Source of the DNA: an uncultured Gammaproteobacteria bacterium
Lineage (GTDB): Bacteria > Pseudomonadota > Gammaproteobacteria > CAZYIF01
Direction of reading: 5' to 3'
Length of the DNA: 64,000 nucleotides
NCBI GenBank assembly: GCA_964646995.1
Contig: CAZYIF010000010.1
Coordinates: 4,133 to 68,132 of the forward strand
Shown here: positions 4,839 through 43,850 of the stretch, piece by piece
How positions within the stretch are numbered: position 1 is the first letter of the stretch
How the letters are laid out: every line of letters starts with the position of its first letter
Translations under genes and position numbers: made by a program
Notes under the pieces: model-generated
The model's input: only the letters and a program-made list of their open reading frames with translations
Told to the model about the DNA's origin: nothing
Databases searched by the model: none

Positions 4839-4950
4839 GTAACTATTCAGCAAATTTTCAAGACAGCGCAATCGTGCTTGCGAACGCGGTGCTTTCTTTA
4901 TCCAATGGGGATTATCAAGGGTAGAATCGCGATTCTACCCTGAGAATGAG
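4839..4950. repeat. copy of the intergenic repeat family (gtaactattcagcaaa head + perfect 24-bp palindrome agggtagaatcgcgattctaccct)
   Basis: Same motif order and spacing as the 36991..37290 units. Located in the yqgE/pckA divergent region. Confidence 0.7.
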
Positions 4951-5020
4951 GCATGCTCACAAACTATGCTTTCCTCGCGTTTTATTGACTCGTTTTGTCA
5001 TGTTTCACCGCATAAAGTGG

Positions 5021-6662: not shown

Positions 6663-6701
6663 ATTTGATGTATTAGGTCCAGCCATGATCGTGACGTAAC
6701 G

Positions 6702-7442
6702 ATGCAGCCGTTTGCTGAATCGTTACGGATTTTTGCACAAGGAATACGCGCCGTGTCGAAAACGGATAACACTACACGAGCACCCGAAGCGAGCGCCAGA
6801 TCCAGGGGACAACGCTTAAAACGCCTGCGTAACCTGGCCAATCTGCCACGAAAAATCATAGCAGAACACTATGATATCAACATCAATACACTCAAAGGTT
6901 GGGAAATCGGTAGACACGGTGGCTTAACTAAAAAAGGCGCGCAACACTTTTTACAGTTGTTGAGTCAACACGGTGTCAAATGCGAACTAGAATGGTTGCT
7001 GTTTGGCACAGGTGCACCACCGACTGTACATGAGATCTTTTCCGCTGCATCCTCCACGGCAGAGCCAAATGACGACGCCCACTTTATACCTGACAGTGAA
7101 CCACAGTGTGCGCACGAACTCGCGCTCTTTCAGCAACAGGCGCCAACCCTACATTTCAGGGTAAGCGACGACGCAATGGCACCTAAATACCAATGCGGTG
7201 ACTACGTCGCTGGCATCAAACGCCACGACTCGCACCCATTGCAGGTACTGCATCTCGATTGCATCGTTGAAACAACGACAGGCGAAATCTTGTTGCGTCA
7301 TGTACGCGACTACGTCCCGCCACTGCACTATACCTTGCTCGCACTCAACCCATATTCTACCGTCGCCCAGCCTACCCGTTATGAAGTTCCGTTACGCAGT
7401 GCTGCGCCGGTGATTTGGCATAGACGCAAAGATCCGGTGTAA
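6702..7442 (+). CDS. XRE-family HTH transcriptional regulator with C-terminal LexA/cI-like (peptidase S24 fold) domain
   Basis: HTH region RLKRLRNLANLPRKIIAEHYDININTLKGWEIG. The C-terminal segment aligns to the lambda cI/LexA cleavage domain (FRVSDDAMAPKY vs EVEGNSMTAP; GDYVAGIK vs GDFCIARL). Confidence 0.55.
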   Translation: MQPFAESLRIFAQGIRAVSKTDNTTRAPEASARSRGQRLKRLRNLANLPRKIIAEHYDININTLKGWEIGRHGGLTKKGAQHFLQLLSQHGVKCELEWLLFGTGAPPTVHEIFSAASSTAEPNDDAHFIPDSEPQCAHELALFQQQAPTLHFRVSDDAMAPKYQCGDYVAGIKRHDSHPLQVLHLDCIVETTTGEILLRHVRDYVPPLHYTLLALNPYSTVAQPTRYEVPLRSAAPVIWHRRKDPV

Positions 7443-7617
7443 CAAATAATCTTTTAAGTGGGTGTCATCCCGAGTGCAACGAGGGACCTCGAGCAGACGG
7501 CACGTTCTCATTAATAACACCGTGCAATCGTCTCGAGATCCCTCCATCGCGTTGCGATGTTCGGGATGACCCTATTGGAAAGATCCCTCACTGCGTTCGG
7601 GATGACGCCGTCCTTTA
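7443..7617. repeat. REP-like intergenic repeat cluster / bidirectional terminator between convergent genes
   Basis: Three copies of the motif tcatcccga / tcgggatga, one inverted. A long imperfect hairpin is also present: gggacctcgagcagacggcacg...cgtgcaatcgtctcgagatccc. Confidence 0.4.
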
Positions 7618-8559
7618 TCATGTGCTAGCAACACACAATAACCGCTGAAAATAAGCCGGATCATGTTTACGTAACAAAGGATTGTCGGCCGTGAAATGCC
7701 AATCGAGCAAACGCGACAACCAAAAACGCAACGCCGCACTGCGCTGCATGACAGGCAATGCAGCCAACTCTCCCGGCGTTAACTCCCGTTCACTTTGATA
7801 GCCGCGTAAGAGCTGCTGATAACGCAACGTATCTATATTGCCGTCGGCTGTCACACACCAATCATTGATGACGATGGCTAAGTCCAACACCCAATAATCA
7901 TGGCATGCGTAATAAAAATCGATGAGGCCCGTGATTTCATCCGCAACAAACAACACATTGTCACGAAATAAATCGGCATGAATCAAACCTTGCGGCAGCT
8001 GCAAACCCTGTTGTTGACGTTGGAACGTCAGTTCTTGTTGCAATAACTGCTGTTGTGGTGCAGACAAAACCGGCATGAGCCGCGCGGCGGCCGCATCACG
8101 CCACGTTGCACCACGGGTATTAGCCGGTACAGGCAACGGCAATGCCGTCGCGTACTGATGCAGTTGCGCTAACGTACGGCCCAACGCATAACACTGCGCG
8201 ACATTCGCTTGCGCCACACAGTTTCCCGGCAAAAATTCAATGAAGGCCAACGGCTTGTCACCCAAGGCACCTAAATAACGCTGTTGTTTATCTTGCAAAG
8301 TATGTGGACACGGCAAGCCCTTCGCGGCAAGAAACGACATCAGTTGCAAAAAAAACAGCAACACGTCTGCACTGTCTTGTTCAAAGAGTGTTAACACATA
8401 CTCGCCGCCTGTGGTGGTGACGTGGTAGTTTGAATTCGTTATACCCGCAGCAATGGGCGTGTATCGCAGCAACTCTCCCACGGCGTAATCGCGCAAGATA
8501 TCCTGTAGTTGCAACGGACTAATGACTGTGTGTACCGACATAGACTTGCTATCCCTCAA
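7618..8559 (-). CDS. thrB: homoserine kinase type II (protein-kinase fold, Pseudomonas-type ThrB)
   Basis: GLIHADLFRDNVLF, GLIDFYYAC, INDWC and RFWLSRL match Pseudomonas ThrB. The gene is adjacent and divergent to polA, as in Pseudomonas. The start is probably the internal MSVHTV at 8541. Confidence 0.8.
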   Translation of the reverse strand: MRDSKSMSVHTVISPLQLQDILRDYAVGELLRYTPIAAGITNSNYHVTTTGGEYVLTLFEQDSADVLLFFLQLMSFLAAKGLPCPHTLQDKQQRYLGALGDKPLAFIEFLPGNCVAQANVAQCYALGRTLAQLHQYATALPLPVPANTRGATWRDAAAARLMPVLSAPQQQLLQQELTFQRQQQGLQLPQGLIHADLFRDNVLFVADEITGLIDFYYACHDYWVLDLAIVINDWCVTADGNIDTLRYQQLLRGYQSERELTPGELAALPVMQRSAALRFWLSRLLDWHFTADNPLLRKHDPAYFQRLLCVAST

Positions 8560-8651: not shown

Positions 8652-11372
8652 TTGTTACGGAACATACAGATGACTACATCAACACACACATCACCCTTTA
8701 TTCTGGTAGACGGTTCGTCTTATTTATTTAGGGCTTATCATGCCTTGCCTCCACTCACCACGCAACAAGGTGAGCCGACTGGCGCTATCTATGGCATGCT
8801 CAACATGCTACGCAAATTATTACACGATTATCAGCCAGAGCACATAGCGGTGATCTTCGATAGCAAAGGCAAAACCTTTCGCCATGCATTATATCCCGAC
8901 TACAAAGGCAACCGTCCTACCATGGCCGATGATCTGGCCGTACAAATAGCACCCTTGCAAGACATCATTCGCGCCTTGGGTTTGCCACTTATCTTGCAAT
9001 CCGGCGTAGAGGCCGATGATATTATCGGCACCTTAGCCTGCCAAGCTACGCGCGCCGGTATGCAAACCTTGATTGTCACCGGTGACAAAGACATGGCGCA
9101 GCTCGTCAACGAACATGTCTCTTTGCTCAACACCATGACCAATAAACGCTTGGATGTCGCCGGGGTCACCGAAAAATTTGGTGTTCCACCGCATTTAATT
9201 ATAGATTACTTAACCTTGGTGGGTGACACCGTGGATAACATCCCCGGCGTGCCCATGGTCGGCCCAAAAACAGCCGCAAAATGGCTAACGACCTTTGCCT
9301 CTCTCGATAAACTCATCGCCCACGCCGATCAAATCAGCGGTAAAGTCGGTGATAATCTGCGTGCAAGCCTACACCAATTTAGTCTGACCAAGCAATTAAC
9401 CACGATCTGTTGCGATGTACCACTGGACTACCAACCCGAACAATTGCGCATGCAGGCAAAAGACAGCGCAACCCTAATCACTGCGTATCGGCGCTTTGAA
9501 TGCAAAGCCTGGTTGGCCGAACTCCTCAACGAGACCGCAGCCGACGCATCCCCTCCCGCAGAACATCCCGTGCAATACAGCATCGTAACGGATGAGACCA
9601 CGTTTATACGCTGGCTAGAGCGTTTAGCTAACAGTACGCTTTTTGCGTTTGATACAGAAACCACGAGTCTGGATTACATGCAAGCAGAACTGGTTGGGGT
9701 TTCGTTTGCGATCACCGCACAAGAAGCGGCTTATGTACCCGTTGGCCACGATTATCCCCAGGCACCGCCGCAACTTGCGCGTGAGTTTGTATTGGCAAAG
9801 CTAAAACCCTTACTGGAAAACCCCGCACTTGCTAAGGTAGGTCAAAACCTTAAATTTGATATGAGCGTGTTAGCCAATTACGGTATCACGCTACAAGGCA
9901 TTGCCTTTGACACCATGCTAGAATCTTATGTGCTACACAGCACGACCACGCGCCACGACATGGATTCCTTAGCCTCCACGTATTTACACTATCAAACGAC
10001 TACCTACGAAGATATCGCGGGCAAAGGCGCCAAACAACGTAGCTGTAATGCCATCGATGTCGCTGTCGTTGGTCCGTACGCAGCAGAAGATGCCGACATC
10101 ACCTTACGACTGCACCAACATCTGTGGCCGCTGCTATGCCAAGAAAAAAAATTAGCGGCGGTTTTTACCACGCTAGAACTGCCACTTATTCCGATTTTGT
10201 CGCGCATGGAACGCACCGGCGTATTGCTCAACACCGCGATGCTGCAACAGCACAGCCAAGAGCTCGCCCACAAACTCGCTGCCCTAGAACACGCCGTGTA
10301 TGACTTAGCCGGCGAAGCCTTTAACTTGGCGTCACCTAAACAATTACAAGAAATTTTATTCATTAAACACGGTTTGCCTGTCCTCAAAAAAACGCCCGGC
10401 GGACAAGCGTCTACGGCAGAAGACGTATTGCAAGAACTCAGCTTCGATTACCCGATCGCTAAGCTACTGGTAGAATATCGCAGCTTAAGCAAACTCAAAT
10501 CGACGTATACCGATCGCCTGCCTACACAAGTACACCCTAAGACAGGCCGCGTACATACCTCCTACCACCAAGCGATCACCGCCACCGGACGCTTATCCTC
10601 CAGTGAACCGAACTTACAAAATATTCCCATTCGCACCGAACAAGGCCGCCGCATCCGTCAAGCCTTTATTGCCAAACCGGGTTATTGTTTAGTGGCTGCC
10701 GACTATTCACAAATCGAATTGCGCATCATGGCGCATTTATCCCAAGATGCCGGATTGCTTGCCGCCTTCGCGCAAGGCCTGGATATACACCGCGCTACCG
10801 CCGCTGACGTATTTGACAGCACCCCCGCACAGGTCACGCCCGAACAACGACGCAGCGCCAAAGCCATTAATTTTGGTTTGATCTACGGCATGTCAGCGTT
10901 TGGTTTGGCCAAACAACTCGGCATAGATCGCATGGCGGCGCAACACTACGTTGATTTGTATTTTCAGCGTTACCCCGGCGTCAAACACTACATGGAAACC
11001 ACGCGCGCGACAGCACACGATCAAGGCTTTGTCGAAACGATCATGGGCCGTCGTCTCTATCTTCCCGAAATCAACGCGCGGAATGTGCAACGCCAAAAGG
11101 CCGCTGAACGCACCGCCATTAACGCACCCATGCAAGGCAGCGCCGCGGACATCATTAAACAAGCCATGTTAGCCTGTGATGCGTGGCTACAACGCGATCC
11201 CATTGGGAATATGGTAATGCAAGTACACGACGAACTCGTCTTTGAAATAGAGACGACACAGCTGACACGCGCACTGCCCATCATCAAACAGCTGATGGAA
11301 CAGAGCGCCGAACTAGCCGTGCCGCTAGTCGTGGAAATTGGCCATGGCAATAACTGGGACGAAGCGCATTGA
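8652..11372 (+). CDS. polA: DNA polymerase I
   Basis: 906-aa ORF carrying the 5' nuclease, 3'-5' exonuclease and polymerase domains. Motif A DYSQIELRIMAHLS, motif B RRSAKAINFGLIYG, motif C QVHDELVFE. The start may be the Met at 8670 (MTTSTH...). Confidence 0.95.
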   Translation: MLRNIQMTTSTHTSPFILVDGSSYLFRAYHALPPLTTQQGEPTGAIYGMLNMLRKLLHDYQPEHIAVIFDSKGKTFRHALYPDYKGNRPTMADDLAVQIAPLQDIIRALGLPLILQSGVEADDIIGTLACQATRAGMQTLIVTGDKDMAQLVNEHVSLLNTMTNKRLDVAGVTEKFGVPPHLIIDYLTLVGDTVDNIPGVPMVGPKTAAKWLTTFASLDKLIAHADQISGKVGDNLRASLHQFSLTKQLTTICCDVPLDYQPEQLRMQAKDSATLITAYRRFECKAWLAELLNETAADASPPAEHPVQYSIVTDETTFIRWLERLANSTLFAFDTETTSLDYMQAELVGVSFAITAQEAAYVPVGHDYPQAPPQLAREFVLAKLKPLLENPALAKVGQNLKFDMSVLANYGITLQGIAFDTMLESYVLHSTTTRHDMDSLASTYLHYQTTTYEDIAGKGAKQRSCNAIDVAVVGPYAAEDADITLRLHQHLWPLLCQEKKLAAVFTTLELPLIPILSRMERTGVLLNTAMLQQHSQELAHKLAALEHAVYDLAGEAFNLASPKQLQEILFIKHGLPVLKKTPGGQASTAEDVLQELSFDYPIAKLLVEYRSLSKLKSTYTDRLPTQVHPKTGRVHTSYHQAITATGRLSSSEPNLQNIPIRTEQGRRIRQAFIAKPGYCLVAADYSQIELRIMAHLSQDAGLLAAFAQGLDIHRATAADVFDSTPAQVTPEQRRSAKAINFGLIYGMSAFGLAKQLGIDRMAAQHYVDLYFQRYPGVKHYMETTRATAHDQGFVETIMGRRLYLPEINARNVQRQKAAERTAINAPMQGSAADIIKQAMLACDAWLQRDPIGNMVMQVHDELVFEIETTQLTRALPIIKQLMEQSAELAVPLVVEIGHGNNWDEAH

Positions 11373-11374
11373 CG

Positions 11375-12379
11375 CTACGCGCGCATCATCGCCAAGCTGG
11401 TATCTAACATACGATTGGAAAAACCCCATTCGTTGTCGTACCAACTCAAGACTTTGACCAAACGGCCCAATACTTTCGTTTGGGTAGCATCAAAAATCGA
11501 AGACGCGGGATGATGATTGAAATCCACGGAAACTAACGGCTCTTCGTTGTAGAACAAAATCCCTTGCAGTGCGCCCTGCGCCGCCGCTTTAAGTGCCTGA
11601 TTAATTTCCTGCACATCCGTGTCACGCTGCGCCTGTAGTGTTAAATCAACAACCGACACATTGTTGGTTGGCACGCGCATCGCGAAGCCATCTAAACGAC
11701 CATTGAGTTCCGGTAAAACTAAACCTACTGCTGCGGCAGCGCCCGTCTTCGTCGGAATCATCGATTGCGTCGCTGAGCGTGCGCGACGTAAGTCGCTGTG
11801 CGCGGTATCTAATAACTTTTGATCGTTGGTATACGCATGTATCGTGGTCATCAGCCCATGTGCAATGCCTACCTTGTCATGCAACACTTTGGCAATCGGT
11901 GCTAAGCAATTGGTAGTGCACGATGCATTAGACACGATGCAGTCACTGGCCTTGAGTACAGCGTGATTAACACCGTAAACAATCGTTGCATCCGCGTCAT
12001 CTGCGGGCGCTGAAATCAAGACCTTTTTTGCACCTGCCTGCAGATGCGCGCTGGCTTTGCTACGACTCGTAAAAATGCCACTACATTCATACACGACATC
12101 AACAGCCAGATCACGCCACGGTAATTTACTCGGATCACGTTCAGCAAGAATCGCTATCGTTTGCCCGTTAACTTGCATGTGCTGATCGATCAATTCGACG
12201 TGCCCCGGGAAACGACCAAACGTACTGTCATACCGCGTCAAGTGCACATTGGTTTGAATATCCGCCAAATCATTGATGGCGACGATATGAATTTCTTGCT
12301 GCCGTGCTGCCTCATGCACTGCACGCAAAATATTACGTCCAATGCGACCATACCCATTGATTGCCACGCGGATTGCCAT
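11375..12379 (-). CDS. gap: glyceraldehyde-3-phosphate dehydrogenase
   Basis: [23 protein letters not shown]-binding N-terminus. Active-site SCTTNCLAP. Confidence 0.95.
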
Positions 12380-20956: not shown

Positions 20957-21066
20957 AGTATTATTTTAACGACCATTGGTTTACGCCGCTCAGCACACCC
21001 GTGCGAGACAAACGACACACCATACTTTATTATGTGCAAAAAATCATCTTTTTTATTCTTTTTACG

Positions 21067-21255
21067 CTAGCTTCGCAGCAAAAGCACACAAAATCCCACG
21101 AAAACAATCAACGCTAGACCTAAAATCCCCATGGAACGAAAGCTTTTACCCAGGTTTTCTTTACTTAAGGCCTGCGGATTCGCCCGTAAACTACGATATG
21201 CCATCCACACAAATAGTAGCCCTACCACCACCCCTATTATTTTCTCCCATTGCAT
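21067..21255 (-). CDS. small membrane protein (62 aa, 2 predicted TM helices)
   Basis: MQWEKIIGVVVGLLFVWMAYRSL...MGILGLALIVFVGFCVLLLRS. Coding-like hydrophobic architecture. Sits alone in the mnmG upstream region. Confidence 0.35.
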   Translation of the reverse strand: MQWEKIIGVVVGLLFVWMAYRSLRANPQALSKENLGKSFRSMGILGLALIVFVGFCVLLLRS

Positions 21256-21300
21256 TACATACTCCCCGCTTGCTTACTGCCCACGACAGTATAAACTTTT

Positions 21301-21363
21301 GTAACTATTCAGCAAAGACGTGGTTTTTTAGGGCGTTTTGCGCGAAGAATGCCTGCAGGCATT
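21301..21363. repeat. partial repeat-family copy: gtaactattcagcaaa head followed by an unrelated 16-bp palindrome aatgcctgcaggcatt
   Basis: Exact 16-mer shared with the other copies, located in the mnmG-upstream / fusion-gene divergent region. Confidence 0.5.
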
Positions 21364-21500
21364 ACCGCACCTCCGGTTTCATTCGCTAGCGGTGCCGTTA
21401 CCTCGTTTTTAACTAACCCGTCTTGTTTTTATGAATAAAATCATGCTTAACTTGCGAAACAGACAACATACCCATTAATGCTCATTTTAGGATAACACCG

Positions 21501-35904: not shown

Positions 35905-36905
35905 GGATTTTCCGCGGTAGGCAGTAGTCGTTTGCCCGGTTGCAGCCAGGCGCGCGCGGCATGACGCAGTTCCTTGATGGAGAGCACCTTACCTCCGGGC
36001 AATTGCAGTTGGGTGATACCCAATTGCCCTTGCGCGCAGGCGACGTGCAAGGTCGTGTCGGTGACTGCCACGATAGTGCCTGGCGGCGCTGCATCATCGC
36101 TGTGTGGTAAGGCGTGGCTCGCCCAAAGTCGCAGTCGTTCGCCGCTATCGATGTGGGTATAGGCGATGGGCCACGGATTGAAAGCGCGCACTTGTCTAGC
36201 GATGGCTTCGGCACTGTGCTGCCAATCGATCAGGCCTTCTTCTTTGCTGAGTTTTTTCGCGTAACACGCGAGTTGATTTTCCTGTGCGACGGGTTTTATG
36301 GCACCTGCTTCCAGTAGGGGGAGTGTAGCGAGCAAAGTATGAGAACCCAGTATAGCTAATTTATCGTGTAGCGTGGCGCTGCTATCCTCGGGTGAAATGT
36401 CTAGCGCTTGGCTGTGTAAGACGGCGCCCGTGTCTAGCCCTACGTCCATTTGCATGATACTAATGCCGGTGCGGGTGTCGCCGGCTAAAATAGCGCGTGC
36501 AATCGGTGCCGCGCCGCGCCAGCGTGGCAATATGGAGGCGTGGACATTGAGGCAACCATAGCGTGGTAGTGCTAACACGGCAGCCGGCAACAGCAGGCCG
36601 TACGCGACGACCACGATGAGATCCGGTTGTAGTGTGTGTAGTGTATGTTGCGCTGTAGCATCCAGACGTGCCGGTTGATAGACCGGAATGTCGTGGGTCT
36701 GCGCGAGGTGTTTGATGGGACTGGCATGTAGATGACGGCCGCGTCCCGCAGGGCGATCCGGTTGCGTATACACAGCGATGATGTCATGCGTGGAGGTCAC
36801 TAATGCGTGTAGCGACGGCACAGCAAACTCGGGAGTTCCTGCAAAGATGATGCGCAATGTAATAATCCCTTGTGCAAAAGTCAGGAGCATATCACAGTTG
36901 TTCAA
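35901..36905 (-). CDS. fmt: methionyl-tRNA formyltransferase
   Basis: LRIIFAGTPEFAVPSLHAL N-terminus. Formyltransferase core (HASILPRWRGAAPIARAI) with SLYC-like motifs. The start is probably a few codons inside the track ORF. Confidence 0.92.
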   Translation of the reverse strand: MNNCDMLLTFAQGIITLRIIFAGTPEFAVPSLHALVTSTHDIIAVYTQPDRPAGRGRHLHASPIKHLAQTHDIPVYQPARLDATAQHTLHTLQPDLIVVVAYGLLLPAAVLALPRYGCLNVHASILPRWRGAAPIARAILAGDTRTGISIMQMDVGLDTGAVLHSQALDISPEDSSATLHDKLAILGSHTLLATLPLLEAGAIKPVAQENQLACYAKKLSKEEGLIDWQHSAEAIARQVRAFNPWPIAYTHIDSGERLRLWASHALPHSDDAAPPGTIVAVTDTTLHVACAQGQLGITQLQLPGGKVLSIKELRHAARAWLQPGKRLLPTAENP

Positions 36906-36954
36906 CGCAGCTCTAGCAGATGAGACAGTCCGTTATCGGCTAACACAAGATCCA

Positions 36955-37297
36955 TTGCACTGCAAAATGCGCTTTTTGCATTTTGCAGTATTCTCTAGGC
37001 GATGGGGTTTCCCAAGGGGAGAATCGCGATTCTTCCCTTGAGCGCCGTTAAGCCCAGTTTTACTGGGTAGGCGTAAAGTTAAGGGTAACTATTCAGCAAA
37101 TTTGAGGATGCTGTTTATTGGCGAGGTAAAAATAGTTGTTTTCTCTACGCGATGAGGATTCTCAAGGGGAGAATCGCGATTCTTCCCTTGAGCGCCGTTA
37201 AGCCCAGTTTTACTGGGTAGGCGTAAAGTTAAGGGTAACTATTCAGCAAATTTGAGGATGCTGTTTATTGGCGAGGTAAAAATAGTTGTTTTCTCTA
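36955..37297. repeat. 2 x 150-bp perfect-tandem intergenic repeat carrying a hairpin and a 26-bp palindrome, plus a partial third unit
   Basis: Unit 1 spans 36991..37140 and unit 2 spans 37141..37290. The two units are almost identical by eye. The next unit begins with ttctcta at 37291. Each unit contains aaggggagaatcgcgattcttccctt and gtaactattcagcaaa. It is preceded by the hairpin tgcaaaatgcgctttttgcattttgca at 36961..36987. Confidence 0.85.
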
Positions 37298-37371
37298 AAC
37301 AGTCGCCAATAGGCTGTGTGAAAGGCTATACTCCTGCCTCACCTCGGTATTGCGGTAGGGTACAGCGAACC

Positions 37372-39096
37372 ATGTTACACCGGTACTACACATTAACCAA
37401 CGCGGTCAGCGCGCCTAATCGCTGGGATATATTGGCGTTGCTATTGATCCTGGGACTCGTGGCGTTGTTTACGTGGATCGCCAAGCAAATGGCCTTGCCC
37501 TATCATCTCGGTGATCCCATTGCGATTAGTTTAGGTGTCCGTGTGTTACCGGGTTATGCGTTGCATACGGTGCTACGCATGGCCATGGCGTTGGTTTGCT
37601 CTTTTTTATTCACGCTTATTTTTGGTGCGCTAGCGGCAAAGAATCGTCAAGCCGAGCGGATCATCATTCCCCTATTAGACATCTTGCAATCGGTTCCGGT
37701 GTTGGGTTTTCTCTCGATTACCATCGTGGGTTTCATTGCCTTGTTTCCCGGTAGTTTGTGGGGGCCGCAGTGCGCGTCCATTTTCGCTATTTTTACGAGT
37801 CAAGCGTGGAATATGACGTTTAGTTTTTATCAGAGTTTGCGAACAGTCCCCTCCGATTTACAAGAAGCGGCGATCATGTTTAGGTTATCTGCATGGCAAC
37901 GATTTTGGCGTATAGAGGTGCCCTTTGCCATGCCCAGTTTGCTGTGGAATGCCATGATGTCGATGTCTGCCAGTTGGTTTTTTGTGGTGGCCTCTGAGGC
38001 TATTTCTGTGGCGAACCAAACCATTACCTTACCGGGTATTGGTTCGTATATTGATGTGGCGATCAAGCAAGCGAATCTACACGCGGTGGCCTATGCCATT
38101 GTTGCGATGATGATCGTCATTGTGTTGTACGATCAACTTTTTTTTCGCCCCTTATTGTGTTGGTCCGAGAAATTTAAAATAATCCAAGATACGCCGCAAG
38201 AGGCCAGTCATTCCTGGATCGTGAGCGTGCTGCAACGCACCCGATGGTTGCGTTACTGCAGTGCTAAGTTGGGTATTGCGGCGAGCCTATTTATTAACTT
38301 GGGCGGCGGCTCCAAGAAACCGCGTTATTTGGAACAACAGCCCTTGTCGACCAGTGCGCGGTATAGGGCGTATGCGTGGAACATATTGTTGTTTGCCGTG
38401 GTGTTGGGGCTTAGCATTGCCTTAGTGCGCTTTGTGGCGCTATCGTTGCATTGGCAAGAGGTGCGACACGCACTGTTCCTCGGTAGCGTGACAGGGTTGC
38501 GGGTTATTATTTTAATTGCATGCAGTTCCTTGTTGTTGATTCCGCTTGGCGTGTACATCGGCATTAATCCGCGCTTGGCACAGGTGCTGAGTCCGGTGAT
38601 TCAGGTGGCGGCCGCGTTCCCCGCTAATTTGTTGTTTCCTGCGGTAGTGTTGTTGATAGTCAAATACCACTTGAATGCAGAGATATGGACGGCGCCGCTG
38701 ATGATTCTCGGGGCGCAGTGGTATATTTTATTTAACGTGATCGCAGGAGTTTTAGCCTTGCCCAAAGACTTATATCAAGTGACGGCGAATTTAGGCGTGC
38801 GTGGCTGGTTGTGGTGGCGCCGTCTCATTTTACCCGGAATTTATCCCTATTATATTACCGGTGCGATTACTGCCGCGGGTGGCGCATGGAATGCGAGCAT
38901 CATTGCGGAATGTGTTAGCTGGGGTGACACGACCTTAACGGCAACCGGCTTGGGCGCTTACATCAAGGCGTACACGGCCGACGGTGATTTCCCCCGTATT
39001 GCACTCGGCATCGGTGTCATGTGTTTGTATGTGGTGTTATTCAATCGTTTGTTGTGGCGGCCGTTATACGCGTTTGCGGAACGACGGTTTCATTAG
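37372..39096 (+). CDS. ABC transporter permease, duplicated (two fused BPD-transporter/TauC-SsuC-type domains, about 12 TM)
   Basis: Two EAA-loop motifs (DLQEAAIMFRLSAWQRFWRIEVPFAMPSL, and TANLGVRGWLWWRRLILPGIYPYYITG). The track ORF begins at 37252 inside the tandem repeat. I start at the ATG at 37372 (MLHRYYTLTN...). Confidence 0.7.
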   Translation: MLHRYYTLTNAVSAPNRWDILALLLILGLVALFTWIAKQMALPYHLGDPIAISLGVRVLPGYALHTVLRMAMALVCSFLFTLIFGALAAKNRQAERIIIPLLDILQSVPVLGFLSITIVGFIALFPGSLWGPQCASIFAIFTSQAWNMTFSFYQSLRTVPSDLQEAAIMFRLSAWQRFWRIEVPFAMPSLLWNAMMSMSASWFFVVASEAISVANQTITLPGIGSYIDVAIKQANLHAVAYAIVAMMIVIVLYDQLFFRPLLCWSEKFKIIQDTPQEASHSWIVSVLQRTRWLRYCSAKLGIAASLFINLGGGSKKPRYLEQQPLSTSARYRAYAWNILLFAVVLGLSIALVRFVALSLHWQEVRHALFLGSVTGLRVIILIACSSLLLIPLGVYIGINPRLAQVLSPVIQVAAAFPANLLFPAVVLLIVKYHLNAEIWTAPLMILGAQWYILFNVIAGVLALPKDLYQVTANLGVRGWLWWRRLILPGIYPYYITGAITAAGGAWNASIIAECVSWGDTTLTATGLGAYIKAYTADGDFPRIALGIGVMCLYVVLFNRLLWRPLYAFAERRFH

Positions 39097-39199
39097 GCGG
39101 TTGTCAGTCAAATAATAAGCACTAAGATAATAAAGGGATTGATTAACTCGTTGCCATTGTGCATAATAGCACCAGCAATCATAACAACAAGAGGTAGCC

Positions 39200-40321
39200 A
39201 TGCTTTCATTATTTGGTTTTCGACGTGCGGTTGATTCCGCACAAGCAATGCGGGATTTAGAGGAAAAAGTTCGGGCCTATACCCCCGGTAAATTAGATTT
39301 ACCGCAGGGTGATCCCTCCGCATTATTTGATTTATTGGCACAGCAGGGCGTTAACATCCCCATGAATCAGCGGGTGGATAGCATAGGGCAGCGCGGCTTG
39401 CTGAAGACCGGCGACATCCAAACGATGGCACTTTACCTTAGTCAGCGAGAAAACCTAACTATTCCTGAACAGGCGAACATAGGATACCTCACAAATTACC
39501 TGTATGACCAGTTCGTTGCGACAGCCGAGCCTGCTTATGAGAACTGCTTATATTTGCTAGTCTTGGCAGGTCATGCGGATGCTGCGACTAAGTTGGGTGA
39601 TCACTACAGCGATGCGGCGCAGCGGGAGCCAGCGCGTAGCGGTCAGCTCTTGGGAATGGCAGGTTACTATTACTTAGTGGGTGCATTTCTGCCGCAAGAT
39701 AATCAGGGTAATAACTTTATTGATCCGGTCAATGCCATTCGTGGGGCTAGACTCGTTATCACCCTGCAAGCCAGAACGGGCGTGCCTTCTCCCCACCCTC
39801 ACCTACCCCTAGCGTTGGCCATGTTGGAGCATGTGGTTGTCTCTGATCAAAGCCCTAGCGGTTTAGGTCAGAATGCACAAGCTGCGTTGTCTTTACTGAC
39901 TGATGCGCACTTAATGCAAGTGCGTTTTAGCGAGCAGGAGGTCAAGGCCTTGCGTTTTAATCCGCAGTCGGCGGTGACCATGCATGCTGCACCTGGTGAT
40001 GCGGTCAATTCCTTGGGTTTGGCATTGCATTTCATGCAACGCTATCACACGGAGGGTCCTTTTCAAGATAATTTTTTACAGCTGCACTATCGTGTAAGCA
40101 GCGGGTATAACGATCTCGGTGTTGAGCTGCAGCATTTTAGAAACCCACAAGTCGAGTATTACCTCTGTCACATATTAAAGGTGGTTGCACCGAATGTGCC
40201 ATTGCTAAATGGTGTTGAAGGCAGCCAAAATTTGCAGATTAGGATAGGCGAACTGGAGCAAGCAAGAGGTGATAGCGGTTCTAGTTCTACGCTTTCCTTA
40301 ACGAAAGGGTCGACCGCGTAA
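39200..40321 (+). CDS. hypothetical protein (373 aa), no recognisable family
   Basis: Long ORF with no signal peptide or TM. Weak Sel1-like character around LGDHYSDAAQ...LLGMAGYYYLVGAFLPQDNQ. Confidence 0.45.
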   Translation: MLSLFGFRRAVDSAQAMRDLEEKVRAYTPGKLDLPQGDPSALFDLLAQQGVNIPMNQRVDSIGQRGLLKTGDIQTMALYLSQRENLTIPEQANIGYLTNYLYDQFVATAEPAYENCLYLLVLAGHADAATKLGDHYSDAAQREPARSGQLLGMAGYYYLVGAFLPQDNQGNNFIDPVNAIRGARLVITLQARTGVPSPHPHLPLALAMLEHVVVSDQSPSGLGQNAQAALSLLTDAHLMQVRFSEQEVKALRFNPQSAVTMHAAPGDAVNSLGLALHFMQRYHTEGPFQDNFLQLHYRVSSGYNDLGVELQHFRNPQVEYYLCHILKVVAPNVPLLNGVEGSQNLQIRIGELEQARGDSGSSSTLSLTKGSTA

Positions 40322-40420
40322 GCGGCGAGGAATCGTCAAGTCAAACGCATCATTATTTCCTGTATTGGGTGTTTACAATCCGCGTCAGTGTCTGGGCTTC
40401 CTCCCAATCGCTGGCGTGGT
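40318..40420 (+). pseudogene. degenerate fragment of a paralogous ABC-permease gene (relic)
   Basis: agcggcgaggaatcgtcaagtcaaacgcatcattatttcc at 40318.. matches agcggcaaagaatcgtcaagccgagcggatcatcattccc at 37631.. inside the permease gene at about 32/40 nt. It translates to ARNRQVKRIII... versus AAKNRQAERIII... and is then interrupted by a stop. Confidence 0.4.
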
Positions 40421-40635
40421 GTTTCATCGCTGCTTCGTATACCTTAATAATCACCTCTCTTTTTTTGCCCACGGTTCTCTACCGTGACAGGCCGCATTTC
40501 AATACCTATAGACTGCGAAAAAGTACGGTTTGATTCCCATAAATAATTGTGGTCGTAGCTCACTGTTAAGAAAATCTTAAGAAAACTCTGTTACGCTCAC
40601 TCCTTAGTAGTACAGTTACAGAATGGAACCTCAAT

Positions 40636-43092
40636 ATGTCTAGAGCGCTTGCTATCAAGAGGGCACTCGAATCCGGTGATATTGCTCAAACACTTGAACT
40701 TTTTGCACAGGCAGGAAAAACACGGGACATCAAGCTTAGACTTCCTCTCAATGAAGCACTTACCGCAGATGAACTTCTGCTACTGCTGGTGCTGAAAACC
40801 GCGTGGTTTGACCAGGGAAATAAAAAAAAGGGATACCTGGCAAGAGCACACCTATCACGTCAAACGCAACTCGACATCAGCGCTGCTCTGACTGCGTTCG
40901 CCGCGCAAAATCACGGAGAAATTAATCCCGCAAAGCTTCACTTAGTGCGCACCCTTGCTGAAGAAAACGGGGAACCACTACCAAATGCCAAAGCGCTTGA
41001 GCTCACTCAAGACTTGCTTGCGCATATGGACCTACATGTTTGTCATGAAATTCGCAAGTTTTTCAACAAAGAGGCGCACTCATTATTAGGGATCCCAAAA
41101 CGCTGGTTATACCGCACAGGACACGTCTTGGCAGGTATTGTCGCTATTTGCTACGGCTTAGCGACAGGAGCTACGCTATTTTTCATCTTAACCAATATGG
41201 GTTTGCTTTTGTCTGTTGCGATTATCGTTGGTATTTTCGCGTTTTATCACACGTCATCCACAAATTATTATTTTGTCGCTAGAGAATTATCTGCCATATT
41301 AACCGGTCGCCGTTTTTGGCGATACATCGATGAAACCACCGGAAAACGCAAGAGGTTGAGCAGAAAAAGCATTCTATACGCGGGCCTAGGCGCCGTCACG
41401 ATCGCAGCAGCTTCAGCGTCGATGGCGTTACTCAATTACCCCCTGCTTTTAAAATTTTTCCTCTTTGTCGGTTTAATCAAAGCGGGAGCATTTGGCATTT
41501 TACCGCTACTTCTGATCAGTCTAACCGTAATCGTTGCTGTCTGTGAGTTTCTCGCGTTCTCTAAACGTATCACTATGCTTGCGAGAAAAGGTGATTTGCT
41601 ACAATCCATAAGGAACTATTACACGCGTCTTTTCGACCACAACAGTGCGCGTTACAAACGCTATAGCAATCGCAAAGAACGCGCACGACGTGACAAAATA
41701 TACACGTATAGTTTTCTTACGGTGGCTTTTTTTCTGATCACTGCTGGGCTTGGCATGAGTATGGCAGTAAGCGCTATAGGACTGGGATTTACGGTGATAC
41801 CTGTTATTGTGATAACGCTATTTGCTACGTTGATATTGTTACCTTCTTACTTGCTAATCGCCGCAAAAATAATTGAAAAACTCTGTGTTACGTCTATAAC
41901 AACAGACGAAACCGATGCCGCATCGATGACACTTTCGCGTAAAATATATAAGGTGTGCAAAAGCATAGGCGAAGTGCTCATGAGTCTGCCCGTTTTACGT
42001 AAAATGAAATGGGTTTACGATTACTCTGCCGCACGCAGGGCACGTCAACGAATCAAAGCCCAACATCCAAAAATCGTCGCGTCGCTTGAAAGGTATCACA
42101 TTGATCCGCTACATGTAGCGGTTGAACAGCAAGCAGACAAGACGCATATTCACTTTTTGCAAACAAACACGACGTACAAAGCACGCAGCGGAGCACTGCA
42201 AAATAACGCTATCTTGGGTGCGCGCGTAGAACAAGCCGCGAATCCTACGGGAGTTTATGCAACGATAGCTTCGCTTCCCACTGTGGACAATGAACAAAAC
42301 GGCGTAGCTTCCCGTGTACGTCAGAATAGGATCAATACGATGAGGCAAAGCATCGCCACAAAAATGAATGTCTTTACTCGTAGCAAAACGATTACGCCTT
42401 CGCAAAGAGTAGATTCCATGCAGAGATCAACGTTGTGTTGGGCGGTTTTTTGGCGGCAAAAAGAAGCGCCTAGTGCCGTGCCACTGTCTCCTAACAACGC
42501 CGCCGGCACGTCAGCATCTGCAAATGCGCGTGCGTGCCATATTAATTTTTCTGGTAGCTACGTCGATCCATCCGAACTTAGTCAATATAAAGGTGCCGGC
42601 AAAGAAGTAACAAGCCATACGCAAGAAAAATTCAAGATACAGATGGAAGAAACAGGCTATGGTAAGGCCATGTATATCCACAGCCAAAAAACACAAGGCT
42701 CAGAAGAGAAACGCATGGCAACCATGTTGGAGATGGTCATGAGTGTACTCAGTACTTGCCCTGAAACATTGGTCTTAAAGGGTGATCCTTATATGGTGGA
42801 AGCGGGAAGGCTATTTGCAGAAATCATTAAAAGCGAAATGAAGAGACGATCGGGTTATGACTTCGAGATCATTGCGCAACCCATTTTTCCCACAGGTATT
42901 AGTAAACGCATGGTTACTGCCAGAGCCTCGGCGTTTATAGCAAAACTGGACTATTGCTGGGAAAAGTCTACTCCTGCAAGCAGCGGCAAAAATAGCGGTA
43001 ATATCATTAAAATATTACAAGAAAACACGAAACGATTACACTGTAGACATCCCTCGCAAAGAACCTCACGAGACATATCGTTGAGGACATAA
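40636..43092 (+). CDS. large hypothetical multi-pass membrane protein (818 aa): soluble N- and C-terminal domains flanking about 6-8 TM helices
   Basis: Single long ORF that looks AT-richer than neighbouring core genes by eye. Hydrophobic stretches between about aa 160 and 440. No recognisable catalytic motifs. Confidence 0.5.
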   Translation: MSRALAIKRALESGDIAQTLELFAQAGKTRDIKLRLPLNEALTADELLLLLVLKTAWFDQGNKKKGYLARAHLSRQTQLDISAALTAFAAQNHGEINPAKLHLVRTLAEENGEPLPNAKALELTQDLLAHMDLHVCHEIRKFFNKEAHSLLGIPKRWLYRTGHVLAGIVAICYGLATGATLFFILTNMGLLLSVAIIVGIFAFYHTSSTNYYFVARELSAILTGRRFWRYIDETTGKRKRLSRKSILYAGLGAVTIAAASASMALLNYPLLLKFFLFVGLIKAGAFGILPLLLISLTVIVAVCEFLAFSKRITMLARKGDLLQSIRNYYTRLFDHNSARYKRYSNRKERARRDKIYTYSFLTVAFFLITAGLGMSMAVSAIGLGFTVIPVIVITLFATLILLPSYLLIAAKIIEKLCVTSITTDETDAASMTLSRKIYKVCKSIGEVLMSLPVLRKMKWVYDYSAARRARQRIKAQHPKIVASLERYHIDPLHVAVEQQADKTHIHFLQTNTTYKARSGALQNNAILGARVEQAANPTGVYATIASLPTVDNEQNGVASRVRQNRINTMRQSIATKMNVFTRSKTITPSQRVDSMQRSTLCWAVFWRQKEAPSAVPLSPNNAAGTSASANARACHINFSGSYVDPSELSQYKGAGKEVTSHTQEKFKIQMEETGYGKAMYIHSQKTQGSEEKRMATMLEMVMSVLSTCPETLVLKGDPYMVEAGRLFAEIIKSEMKRRSGYDFEIIAQPIFPTGISKRMVTARASAFIAKLDYCWEKSTPASSGKNSGNIIKILQENTKRLHCRHPSQRTSRDISLRT

Positions 43093-43129: not shown

Positions 43130-43290
43130 TGTGAGAACTATTTTTTGTGGATGTAAACAAAAATTTATAGACCTATACAAAGTATGTGTGCACGGTCACC
43201 CAAGGGGAGAAGCGCGCTTCTCTCCTTGGGAAAGCCCATTGCGTAGAGAACACTGCAAAATGCAAAAAGCGCATTTTGAAGTGTAACGGG
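43130..43290. repeat. inverted-orientation copy of the intergenic repeat family (hairpin + palindrome)
   Basis: The reverse complement reads caaaatgcgctttttgcattttgcagtgttctctacgcaatgggctttcccaaggagagaagcgcgcttctcccc, nearly identical to 36961..37040. Confidence 0.75.
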
Positions 43291-43386
43291 TATATACCGC
43301 GAGCAAGTGAATTTTAGGGGTGATGCCCAAAGGTAACAGACTTCATTGAGTGGGCGAGCACCTAAATTATTCGCTCGCGGTATATC
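43289..43386. repeat. MITE-like element: about 22-bp terminal inverted repeats (ggtatataccgcgagcaagtgaatt / aattattcgctcgcggtatatc) flanking about 50 bp
   Basis: The left arm 43289..43313 and right arm 43365..43386 are reverse complements with 2-3 mismatches. An inner nested inverted repeat is ttaggggtg/cacctaaa. Confidence 0.5.
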
Positions 43387-43469
43387 GTGATGATTAGCGT
43401 TAAAGTTCCTCTGGCCATTGCATGGCACAATGAAATACGCGGAGTATTTCAGGGGTTGGGTGAAAGAGC

Positions 43470-43500: not shown

Positions 43501-43850
43501 ATTAAGCGGCGATAAAACTTGAAATTGCGGCGAAAATTCTTAATTTATGGTCACTCACAAAGACGTTGGGTAGCTCATGCCAACAGGTCGTATAGCGTGG
43601 TGAGCGGTTAATGGCTTTATGCCGCCAATTAGGTGTAAGTCCAATAGCCGCGCTAAACATCGTGTCACAGCCATAGCGACAGTTAATAGCATCCATCGGC
43701 GCTGGTGCAACGACAACAATCGACGTGACAATTTAAATTTTCATCCAGCTATGTATAGTGGACCCATCAAAATTCGCCTCTTGGAGTACGTGCGGTATAT
43801 AACGCAAGGTGCACCATCAATATCAAACGTATTGTCTTTTATTAAGCGGA

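Follow-up and report, generated by a model that had tools for sequence, protein, structure and literature searches.

A tandem array in an uncultured gammaproteobacterium is probably a rearranged copy of a hairpin-rich MITE

Correia elements (CREE/NEMIS) of Neisseria are non-coding repeats of 100–155 bp, with terminal inverted repeats of about 26 bp that start with TATAG and with duplicated TA flanks. They are intergenic and contain an IHF site; their transcripts fold into long hairpins, and they can act as a source of promoters or terminators. ERIC, RUP and BOX are small, structured intergenic repeats common to related species, and BOX has a variable number of tandem internal modules. Two MITEs, QMITE1 and QMITE2, have been described from Coxiella burnetii (PMC5896051). 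Here we analyzed an intergenic tandem array in a window of 64 kb (the whole stretch of DNA studied) from an uncultured gammaproteobacterium. We consider it likely that this array is a rearranged copy of a hairpin-rich MITE of about 190 bp that is dispersed in the genomes of uncultured Coxiella-like bacteria. The repeat family is real and apparently undescribed, but it is of an ordinary kind and not a new kind of system.

The array sits in the spacer between the divergent fmt and ABC-permease genes, and its features are collected in Table 1. An earlier reading made without any database search (the sequence-only reading) had described it as a perfect tandem of two 150-bp units with the start of a third. 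Both units and the third start were recovered by TRF, but direct comparison of units 1 and 2 showed that 146 of the 150 positions are identical, so the tandem is not perfect. The four mismatches are confined to the first 22 nt (positions 8, 15, 18 and 22), and the other 128 nt are identical. Each unit contains the 26-bp near-palindrome, here called P, that had been pointed out. The hairpin upstream of the units (36961–36987), previously taken as a separate structure, is real but proved to be hairpin H1 of the same element. Its stem at the array is formed by 36959–36970 with 36978–36989 around the loop GCTTTTT, and the H1 region 36946–36990 is 93% identical to the copy in L039. The position of hairpin H3′ in the array matches that of the covarying H3 helix in the family. 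Similarly, the 16-mer S is present in each unit, but instead of a free-standing motif it is an arm of the terminal hairpin of subfamily 2. S pairs with its own complement as this terminal hairpin, perfectly in L044 and with one mismatch in L049, where the right inverted repeat follows the hairpin.

Two further claims concerned a promoter-like stretch and a gene start. A promoter-like TTGAGG...TAAAAAT stretch had been proposed for each unit; the spacing of the two motifs is 19 nt, and a sigma-70 consensus scan found no promoter-like site within either unit, its sole match (37303–37332) lying downstream of the array. The permease ORF start at 37252 had been called an artifact, and this was borne out. 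The upstream extension to TTG 37252 reads into unit 2, and since all 120 listed homologues are 572–595 aa long and the protein from the same genome has 574 aa, we place the permease start at ATG 37372.

Table 1. Positions of the array, related repeats and the adjacent permease gene in the 64-kb window
Feature	Position	Strand	Content or context	Basis
Locus B	4839..4975	+	Between algH-like gene (-) and pckA (+); S, 39 nt, linker, P (GGGTAGAATCGCGATTCTACCC), short hairpin	
S-like 16-mer, one mismatch	6711..6726	-	One arm of a hairpin, then T-run; 3′ of pckA	
Solo 16-mer S	21301..21316	+	Spacer downstream of mnmG start	
Left part of locus A	36946..36990	+	Degenerate left end ATCCATTGC (cf. TATACCCATTGC) and hairpin H1	nhmmer alignment to positions 2-45 of the model of full-length elements
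Tandem array	36991-37297		Period 150, 2.0 copies, 97% matches	TRF
Tandem unit 1	36991..37140	+	Subfamily 1-type linker, P, hairpin H3′, 16-mer S, segment Y	TRF, unit comparison, subfamily 1/2 alignments
Palindrome P, copy 1	37014..37039	.	AAGGGGAGAATCGCGATTCTTCCCTT; 26 bp, one G.T position	
Hairpin H3′ of subfamily 2	37042..37074	+	GCGCC..CCCAGTTTTACTGGG..GGCGT; second copy in unit 2 at 37192-37224	
Degenerate terminal hairpin H4′	37085..37138	+	16-mer S (37085-37100) through AATAGTT (37131-37137); unit 2 copy 37235-37288	
Tandem unit 2	37141..37290	+	GATTCTC-type linker, P, H3′, S, Y	TRF
Palindrome P, copy 2	37164..37189	.	AAGGGGAGAATCGCGATTCTTCCCTT; 26 bp, one G.T position	
Third-unit start	37291..37297	+	TTCTCTA (7 nt); third occurrence of the repeat bounding the duplicated segment	
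ABC (NitT/TauT-type) permease CDS	37372..39096	+		Pfam BPD_transp_1; same-genome record P0130 = 574 aa
Locus C	43164..43297	-	Left inverted repeat TATACCCGTTACAC, H1, linker, P, H3	nhmmer E = 1e-39
H4-type hairpin	43292..43385	.	TATACCGCGAGC ... GCTCGCGGTATA; abuts locus C via shared TA	Inverted repeat I22
Solo right-end fragment	43762..43806	+	..TTCGCCTCTTGGAGTACGTGCGGTATATA	nhmmer model positions 154-191, E = 3e-6

Judged from its alignments, the array is a locally duplicated chimera with a subfamily 1 head and a subfamily 2 tail. Positions 36950–37039 are 93% identical to a subfamily 1 copy, and 37044–37098 are 98% identical to positions 12087–12141 of L044, a subfamily 2 copy. P itself is split between the subfamilies: its 5′ half belongs with H1 and the linker to one, its 3′ half with H3′ and the S hairpin to the second. 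Of the four differences between the units, two fall where the linkers of the subfamilies differ. The 150-bp segment linker–P–H3′–S–Y stands twice, head to tail, bounded by TTCTCTA. This duplication would have originated by unequal recombination or replication slippage between repeated linker/P sequences, with the palindromes assisting. The array has lost the right terminal repeat, which a sister strain retains at this locus. A comparison across strains had been suggested, and it indeed found a different allele: the sister strain, with a flank 99.6% identical, carries another version of the fmt/permease spacer in which the right terminal repeat is intact, and the flank after 37297 (AACAGTCGCC...) is common to the array and the sister-strain contig L049. 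Of the proposed recent amplification, the involvement of a mobile element and of local recombination is supported, but not the clean amplification of one unit. As a separate observation, a GATTCTC/GATTCTT direct repeat accounts for a deletion in L044.

We considered whether the two-unit tandem could be an assembly artifact, arising from the collapse or expansion of a repeat or from the joining of strain variants. The contig was apparently assembled from a metagenome, the units differ by only 4 nt that are all at one end, and the sister allele co-occurs in another sample. In addition, short-read contigs end at the repeats: independent k-mer contigs from the same runs break off at 37028, the center of P copy 1, resume at 37268 and end once more at 43197. 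Such breaks at the repeats also speak for the MITE. However, the junction between Y and linker 2 repeats the S–(39–40 nt)–linker–P arrangement that was found independently at locus B. The linkers of the two units differ in sequence, and if the assembly graph were followed with only a single unit, one linker would be left over. As tandem and abutting copies are also common in relatives, an artifact seems unlikely to us. Because the independent contigs do not span the interior (37029–37267), the copy number of at least two is a lower bound given by the assembled contig alone.

The claim of copies at two other loci of the window, in both orientations, was confirmed with the restriction that loci B and C share only part of the unit with the array. 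At locus B, 4890–4941 (+) matches the array at 77–83%, and at locus C, 43201–43289 (−) matches 36952–37040 at 88%. Locus C ends before H4 and covers model positions 1–133 of 191. The hairpin at 36961–36987 has its second copy at 43254–43280 (−), with one mismatch and 0.00 copies expected. The 16-mer S (GTAACTATTCAGCAAA) is found exactly at 37085, 37235, 4839 and 21301 and with one mismatch at 6711–6726 (−); at up to three mismatches the window holds 8 matches compared with 0.69 expected. The solo right-end fragment at 43762–43806 is also supported by the scan for terminal inverted repeats and by blastn matches to L039, L040 and L043. No full-length copy of the element was detected by nhmmer within the 64-kb window. 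What remains at locus C is the left end alone, and at the array (locus A) a degenerate left end. Pfam returned no family for the ORF at 43165–43428 that overlaps locus C. Locus C adjoins a gene relic, a umuC fragment.

The 150-bp unit had been put forward as the unit of the family. Our results show instead an element of roughly 190 bp that is bounded by terminal inverted repeats. P is the center of this non-coding element, which is present in at least six Coxiellaceae-type MAGs and one metagenome. Its order is the left inverted repeat TA·TACC within H1, the linker YGCGATGRGG, P, H3, and H4 with the right repeat GGTA·TA. The left terminal inverted repeat (TATACCCATTGYACTTGAAG..) is the 5′ arm of H1, and the right one (..CTTCAAGTACGAGCGGTATA) is the 3′ arm of H4. 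In the canonical element P measures 26–30 bp, and H3 is variable in sequence with its stem kept. An exact-pattern scan with one genome per species placed the P core at 30 loci in 9 gammaproteobacterial or Coxiellaceae-labeled MAGs, in agreement with the proposed dispersed family of palindrome-bearing intergenic repeats; five further matches elsewhere are presumably chance. The flanks of the P core share the H1–linker–P–H3–H4 layout, and the ends TATACC...GGTATA lie about 190 bp apart. There are at least 4–9 copies per MAG by exact pattern alone, and the one metagenome contains 8 further full-length copies on five contigs. Elements are 163–242 bp long, with full-length copies mostly between 182 and 195 bp, and each module is single in all of the full-length copies examined (at least 22). 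ORFs across the copies are short and not conserved. The copies lie between genes, in either orientation, and the spacers that hold them may be convergent, divergent or co-directional. The outward promoter-like sites of the element depend on the flank.

This distribution bears on the suggestion that a transcription factor or recombinase binds P as its operator, so that the loci carrying it form a regulon. Such a role would fit a near-perfect 26-bp palindrome whose spacer contains a promoter at two of the three loci in the window. However, P always lies inside a larger repeat bounded by terminal inverted repeats, that is, in a mobile element, and is found in every intergenic context, including convergent spacers and positions after stop codons. 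The genes beside it are functionally unrelated. The arms of P change by paired, compensatory substitutions, from GGGGAG/CTCCCC to GGAGAG/CTCTCC to AGAGGAG/CTCCTCT, leaving no fixed contact bases, and a variant in which one arm is destroyed has spread. We regard the operator as extremely improbable.

The features of the element are consistent with a MITE. It is small (under about 600 bp), has no transposase coding capacity, and is dispersed in multiple copies with presence/absence differences between relatives. The left end reads TATACCCATTGYACTTGAAGTTGCGAA and the right end, given as its reverse complement, TATACCGCTCGTACTTGAAGATGCGAA; these ends are about 190 bp apart in at least 20 copies. 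In an RNAalifold analysis of 19 aligned elements, columns 2–28 paired with columns 173–202. A second short element, beta, was found in two MAGs with another interior and the same terminal nucleotides (about 19 nt, TATACYCNTNGCACTTGAA), which implies a putative transposase common to both non-autonomous families. The sequence GGTA·TA·TACC stands at seven junctions, in genomes from four sources, where abutting copies share one TA. These junctions and the element ends, nearly all of which are TATACC/GGTATA, are consistent with duplication of a TA target, although the TA is inseparable from the conserved ends. A transposase encoded elsewhere would recognize the terminal 19–27 nt or so, and the element would insert at TA dinucleotides and duplicate them.

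Comparison of copies also points to turnover. Between the syntenic L005 and L034 (about 80–85% nucleotide identity), two orthologous spacers hold an alpha copy versus a different element; the same synteny gave no clean empty site, as spacers were replaced or complex. A variant of P with a broken 3′ arm is present in 4 of the 8 metagenome copies, and since these copies share it, the change must have preceded the multiplication of this variant. Neither an autonomous element nor a transposase with the ends of the family was found: about 400 kb of loci examined contained no terminal repeats paired at the distance of an IS. An ORF between two copies in L022 was considered as this partner and rejected, as it is not a transposase. 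The plasmid database gave no blastn match to the element, and viral contigs gave no exact-pattern match.

Alternatively, the element could be moved as single-stranded DNA by a hairpin-recognizing HUH/Y1 enzyme (REP/RAYT or IS200/IS605-like) and not by a DDE transposase. It consists almost wholly of hairpins whose stems, not sequences, are conserved, and its terminal repeats are arms of H1 and H4. However, terminal inverted repeats of 19–27 nt together with TA-sharing junctions typify cut-and-paste elements and not IS200/IS605 or REPs. The element contains no GTAG or CGTC tag (as defined in PMC3733652), and an incidental look noticed no Y1 gene. We judge this mode of transfer to be quite improbable.

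The core of the element shows a further pattern. Across 29 copies, 88.9% of the cells in P and H3 are paired, compared with 42–55% in slid controls. Compensatory changes in these copies support the P stem, and 13 of the 14 H3 pairs covary. The linker and P are also more conserved across species than the terminal repeats. At the level of sequence, the compensatory changes together with this conservation hint at a constraint beyond recognition by a transposase. The linker–P–H3 core might be a functional module, either a structured RNA (guide, ribozyme or regulatory) or a single-stranded DNA recognition structure for an uncharacterized transposition enzyme. Such a module, which we find doubtful, would explain why the core is conserved above the terminal repeats.

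A different possibility is that the whole element acts mainly as a structured RNA, for example a family of sRNA genes or a transcribed 3′/5′-UTR hairpin cassette (terminator or mRNA stabilizer), whose repeats are kept for function. The compensatory preservation of the P and H3 hairpins across species would be expected in this case, and the linker is nearly invariant though it lies outside the search pattern. The array folds far better than shuffled sequence (z = −6.7 for the plus strand and −8.8 for the minus strand). In one canonical copy H1 followed by TTTCTTT has a terminator-like score, and several copies lie 8–25 nt past a stop codon. However, both strands fold equally well, as would those of any palindromic DNA, and the balance of G.U versus A.C positions favors neither strand. 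The orientation relative to neighboring genes is unbiased, with 6 antisense versus 3 sense copies in co-directional spacers. There is no Rfam match, and P is broken in half of the copies of one genome. A structured RNA, which we consider unlikely, would also offer no explanation for the TA junctions, for the terminal inverted repeats or for the ends that the second element has in common. As a specific variant, an attenuator in which the linker pairs with the 3′ arm of P was discarded after three P types checked by hand showed no consistent register.

As a MITE family, the element can be recognized across species within a little-studied clade of uncultured gammaproteobacteria that probably live with hosts, and it is usable as a marker. 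AtpD proved too conserved for taxonomic placement, as its best named relatives, at only 86% identity, come from several orders. It is also a source of strain-level structural variation, as the fmt/permease spacer differs between two strains that are 99.6% identical. Repeats of this type break short-read assemblies and create false ORF extensions, as in the case of the permease “start” at 37252. Because the copies sit in promoter spacers and beside gene relics, they may, like Correia and ERIC elements, rewire expression or give rise to deletions.

In agreement with the sequence-only reading, the family did not match any of the catalogued repeats that we tested, namely Rfam, QMITE1, QMITE2, GTAG/CGTC-tagged REPs and the literature on its motifs and on MITEs. 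Rfam release 15 gave 0 matches in the whole window at the gathering threshold, and a permissive search of 36850–37400 gave one chance match only (E = 3.8). The gathering search of four loci with canonical copies returned only a tRNA elsewhere in a locus. Full-text literature searches with three sequence strings of the element (P center, right terminal repeat) yielded irrelevant matches only, and in the literature on MITEs in Coxiellaceae, Rickettsiella, Aquicella and Legionellales we found no paper describing such an element.

For the C. burnetii MITEs, copies were read directly in DNA reached via the DUF1658 peptides in the supplement of PMC5896051. QMITE1 resembles the element in being a MITE from the order given in the database labels of the carrier MAGs, in having terminal inverted repeats and in lying in or near intergenic regions. 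A QMITE1 copy (L045, about 9880–10330), unlike the element here, has terminal repeats CGCGCAGGCGCATAGGCGTCAACTTAAG, is 300–400 bp long and encodes DUF1658 peptides. A search of 77 kb of C. burnetii DNA with the elements by nhmmer and blastn gave no match, and tblastn of six DUF1658 peptides gave only E ≥ 0.04. QMITE1 is thus ruled out by its other terminal repeats and by the lack of nucleotide and of significant peptide similarity. A weak resemblance to its peptides over the terminal repeat (I[FY]PLYL) vanishes at the DNA level. QMITE2 and the GTAG REP (PMC5896051, PMC3733652) are similar to the element in their length of 150–190 bp, in being dominated by palindromes and in having full-size and truncated versions. 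The intact QMITE2 copy in L048 (about 7960–8100) reads GTGTAGGTTT..GTAGCCCGTATGAGCGAAGCGAAATACGGG..CCCGTATTTCGCTTCGCTCATACGGGCTAC..AAACCTACAC and shows no similarity to the element. As the element also has no GTAG/CGTC tag, QMITE2/GTAG-REP, a target of IS1111, is ruled out as well. The QMITE2 copy in L046 is split by IS1111.

Among repeats of other bacteria, Correia elements are similar in design: the element here has TATACC.. at its ends, junctions at which a TA is shared, and promoter-like sites that point outward and depend on the flank. However, no sequence relationship to the Correia ends is apparent, and the host clade is another one. The element is also longer, with four separate hairpins, and has a conserved central palindrome where Correia elements have an IHF site. 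The modularity of BOX resembles the internal duplication at the array. The 150-bp module of the array, in contrast to ERIC, RUP and BOX, results from a chimeric rearrangement and is not family-wide. Finally, REP/RAYT systems (REPINs) consist of short palindromes of 20–40 nt together with a RAYT gene, whereas each hairpin described here belongs to a longer unit with terminal inverted repeats at its ends.

Tandem Repeats Finder detected a single array of 150-bp period in the window (36991-37297; 2.0 copies, 97% matches). The sequence-only reading had described it as a perfect tandem of two units with the start of a third. The tandem itself stands, but its perfection does not: units 36991-37140 and 37141-37290 differ by 4 mismatches, all within the first 22 nt, with the other 128 nt identical, and the third unit, though present at 37291-37297, amounts to TTCTCTA only. 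The 16-mer S found in each unit has further exact copies at 4839 and 21301, and a one-mismatch match at 6711-6726 on the minus strand; allowing up to 3 mismatches, the window holds 8 matches where 0.69 are expected. The array sits between fmt (minus strand, called start ATG 36890) and a NitT/TauT-type ABC permease gene. Since the permease homologues all measure 572-595 aa and the window permease's own recorded product 574 aa, we place its start at ATG 37372, and the called start TTG 37252 is an artefact, as had been suspected. Short-read contigs of the same organism end at 37028, resume at 37268 and end again at 43197, which are repeat positions. The interior of the tandem (37029-37267) has no independent assembly, and the precise number of units could be artefactual.

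To place the array in a wider context, one genome per bacterial species was scanned for the pattern CAAGGNNAGAANCGCGNTTCTNNCC, which resulted in 35 loci. Thirty of these came from nine MAGs whose labels read Coxiellaceae, Rickettsiella, Gammaproteobacteria, Pseudomonadota or proteobacterium, and a single MAG held up to ~9 of them; the remaining five were single matches in unrelated phyla and presumably arose by chance. The flanks of the 30 loci place the palindrome P at the centre of a larger, ~190-bp unit, here called alpha, whose first ~27 nt and last ~27 nt are mutual inverted repeats paired by RNAalifold. Metagenomes were scanned for the window's version of H1, the first hairpin of alpha, and five contigs of a single assembly (JACCDN01) contained it seven times without mismatch. 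A scan of these loci for terminal inverted repeats (TIRs) revealed another copy, giving eight full-length copies of 184-194 bp that share 84-93% identity with the window copies and have flanks unrelated to the window's. Because these copies include H1, the hairpin preceding the array, earlier regarded as separate, is H1 of the same element, and ATCCATTGCAC at 36950 is the element's decayed left end. Together, the 30 MAG loci and the JACCDN01 copies establish a dispersed family, not a single local duplication, and the partial copies reported at two other window loci in both orientations were recovered.

Features of the alpha element, its copies and associated elements
Feature	Position	Strand	Description
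H1			TATACCCATTGYACTTGAAGTTGCGAA..TTCGCAACTTCAAGTRC; first part of the ~190-bp element
Linker			TTTCTTTGCGCGATGRGGATTTY; between H1 and P
P, then H3			after linker; H3 sequence varies from genome to genome
Short spacer, then H4			TATACCGCTCGC....TCGCATCTTCAAGTACGAGCGGTATA; last part of the ~190-bp element
Palindrome P	37014-37039; 37164-37189		AAGGGGAGAATCGCGATTCTTCCCTT; one per unit
16-mer S	37085; 37235		GTAACTATTCAGCAAA; one per unit
Upstream hairpin	36961-36987		
Upstream hairpin, recurrence	43254-43280	-	
Partial copy of 150-bp unit	4890-4941	+	
Partial copy of 150-bp unit	43201-43289	-	
Locus B	4839-4975		between algH-like gene and pckA; S, then 39 nt, then linker and P
Locus C	43164-43297	-	subfamily 1 copy; truncated before H4
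H4-type hairpin	43292-43385		adjoins locus C
Solo right end	43762-43806		same spacer as locus C
64-aa ORF	43502-43696	-	DUF4113, C-terminal domain of UmuC-type polymerases, E = 1.7e-16
Beta copies	L003 7774-7862; L005 2713-2801; L013 from 5436; L024 near 4942; L034 from 7164		terminal repeats TATACTCtTCGCaCTTGAATTTTTGG
Broken-P variant copies	L039 1408; L040 5974; L041 8397; L044 2301		

The array combines two sources. Positions 36950-37039 (H1, linker 1 and the 5′ half of P) show 93% identity to a JACCDN01 subfamily 1 copy, and positions 37044-37098 (3′ of P, the subfamily 2 version of H3 termed H3′, and S) show 98% identity to a different element type at metagenome locus L044, where S and its complement form a perfect terminal hairpin, GTAACTATTCAGCAttTTGCTGAATAGTTAC. 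Over 37297-40532, the window shares 99.6% identity with a contig from sample SRR27787829, which thus represents a sister strain. Directly upstream of the shared flank AACAGTCGCC, this strain carries an S hairpin with one arm mismatch and then a normal right end, ..CTCGCATTTTGAAGTACGGGCGGTATA, whereas the window has S followed by TTTGAGGATGCTG and TTTATTGGCGAGGTAAAAATAGTTGTTTTCTCTA. The L044 hairpin and the comparison of the two alleles indicate that S is one arm of the second subfamily's terminal hairpin, that the right TIR is gone from the window allele, and that the fmt/permease spacer is structurally polymorphic among very close strains. Two of the four differences between the units (T/A and C/T; GGTTTCC versus GGATTCT) match the linker difference between subfamilies 1 and 2, and one is private to unit 1. 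Based on this match, the array is best interpreted as a chimera whose head comes from subfamily 1 and whose body, from within P onwards, comes from subfamily 2. The 150-bp segment linker-P-H3′-S-Y, where Y follows S, occurs twice, bounded by TTCTCTA repeats, and was likely duplicated by unequal recombination or slippage between repeated linker/P sequences. At locus B, the spacing from S to the linker equals that across the tandem junction. Instability of the linker/P region is seen directly in the subfamily 2 copy at L044 12100-12170 (minus strand), which lacks P because a deletion has joined the direct repeats GATTCTC, from the linker, and GATTCTT, from the 3′ arm of P. Another copy, inverted and degenerate, lies ~150 nt upstream of it.

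Alpha copies are intergenic; the spacers that hold them are convergent, divergent or co-directional, and the copies face either way relative to the flanking genes. Genomes from four sources provide seven junctions of the form GGTA|TA|TACC, in which adjoining element ends have one TA in common, as expected if an element that duplicates its TA target inserts next to an earlier copy, at the TA there. Two MAGs also contain a second short element, beta (~90-150 bp), which has a different interior but the terminal ~19 nt of alpha, and which adjoins alpha copies through a shared TA as they do each other. Such common ends are predicted by a shared transposase recognising them, and alpha and beta are probably served by one transposase. 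Two MAGs syntenic over 7.5 kb (~80-85% identity) have different elements in two orthologous spacers. We infer that the element would insert at TA, duplicating it, through a trans-acting transposase that recognises the element ends; mobilisation by an HUH/Y1 enzyme has a low probability. No IS-sized pairs of terminal repeats were present in ~400 kb of loci, from which the transposase is missing, and no clean empty site was recovered. In half of the eight JACCDN01 copies, P is the same variant, its 3′ arm broken and replaced (GAGAATCGCGTATCGATCC), indicating that the variant multiplied after the change arose and that a perfect palindrome is dispensable for multiplication. In a Rickettsiella MAG (L019 2130-2321) and an unrelated MAG (L021 7430-7623), one orthologous gene block is followed after ~500 nt by a full-length copy, but the two copies are oppositely oriented; either two separate insertions into this spacer or an inversion could account for this.

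An alignment was then made of 29 different linker-P-H3 cores, drawn from ten sources. Standard pairs filled 88.9% of cells in the proposed helices, compared with 42-55% when partners were slid by 1-3 columns. Both sides had changed in 20 of 32 pairs overall (13/14 in H3, 6/14 in P), and the linker was almost invariant, although absent from every search pattern. The paired changes and near-invariant linker indicate some constraint on the interior to keep its hairpins, whether as DNA or as RNA. A regulator binding site had also been considered for the palindrome, but P is very unlikely to be the operator of a regulon: it is part of a mobile repeat, some copies follow stop codons or lie in convergent spacers, its substitutions come in pairs, and one arm can be lost. 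Both strands of the array folded far better than shuffled sequence (z = -6.7 and -8.8), and wobble and mismatch positions favoured neither, so the constraint is not assignable to RNA. A structured RNA gene family would be compatible with the covariation, but nothing strand-specific supports it and the terminal repeats, TA junctions and ends common with beta are left unexplained; we regard it as improbable. For a MITE, the conserved, covarying interior is the one feature beyond the textbook type and mildly interesting; an improbable but more novel reading, in which the core would be a functional nucleic-acid module, builds on it.

Several further observations concern the window. The DUF4113 ORF, which shares a convergent 760-bp spacer upstream of the glmU stop with locus C, appears to be a UmuC gene relic stranded among repeat fragments. 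Between the permease gene and locus C, ORFs 39200-40321 (373 aa) and 40636-43092 (818 aa) match no Pfam family; repeats bound the short-read contig carrying them on both sides. The solo S at 21301 lies in a 545-bp spacer (20957-21500) that separates the mnmG (gidA) start from a methyltransferase/ATP-grasp gene; oriC in gammaproteobacteria is often near mnmG and the atp operon. At 6690-6740, ~30 nt past the pckA stop, an S-like 16-mer (one mismatch) is one arm of the hairpin GTAACGAT..ATCGTTAC, with GGATTTTTG next on the plus strand, and this looks like an intrinsic terminator made from a repeat fragment. Another palindromic repeat family occupies the spacer after ORF 6702-7442, with three copies at 7463-7621 in two orientations (~30-nt unit, GTCATCCCGAGTGCAACGAGGGA / TCCCTC..CGTTCGGGATGAC) and relatives at metagenome loci L039 (10871-10934), L041 (10016-10106) and L044 (7009-7064).

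Finally, we compared alpha with known families. Rfam gave no match over the whole window at gathering thresholds, one chance match at the tandem locus at E <= 10, and only tRNA elsewhere at four canonical loci. C. burnetii DNA (77 kb) was obtained via the DUF1658 peptides in the supplement of PMC5896051, the source for the two published Coxiella MITEs, QMITE1 and QMITE2. It contains a QMITE1 copy with terminal repeats CGCGCAGGCGCATAGGCGTCAACTTAAG (L045), an intact QMITE2, which is a GTAG-tagged palindrome (L048), and a QMITE2 split by IS1111 (L046). Alpha matched nothing in these 77 kb by nhmmer or blastn, and identity with QMITE1 or QMITE2 was rejected; the P core pattern was absent from all C. 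burnetii records in the species-wide scan. The alpha hairpins have neither the GTAG nor the CGTC tag that defines REPs in PMC3733652. Plasmid and viral collections gave no match, and full-text searches brought up no paper with alpha sequences or describing such an element; the family appears uncatalogued, as first proposed. The central idea of a dispersed, palindrome-bearing repeat, locally amplified by mobile or recombinational processes, is upheld. We consider alpha a probable new MITE family that occurs in Coxiellaceae-like bacteria and can aid annotation and strain typing; the window locus is a chimeric copy, truncated at one end, within which 150 bp are duplicated. Though the family is new, the kind of element is well known and not a new system: in how they work, its closest analogues are Correia, ERIC and RUP, which are TA-flanked, inverted-repeat-bounded, hairpin-forming MITEs, and BOX for its modular internal repeats.
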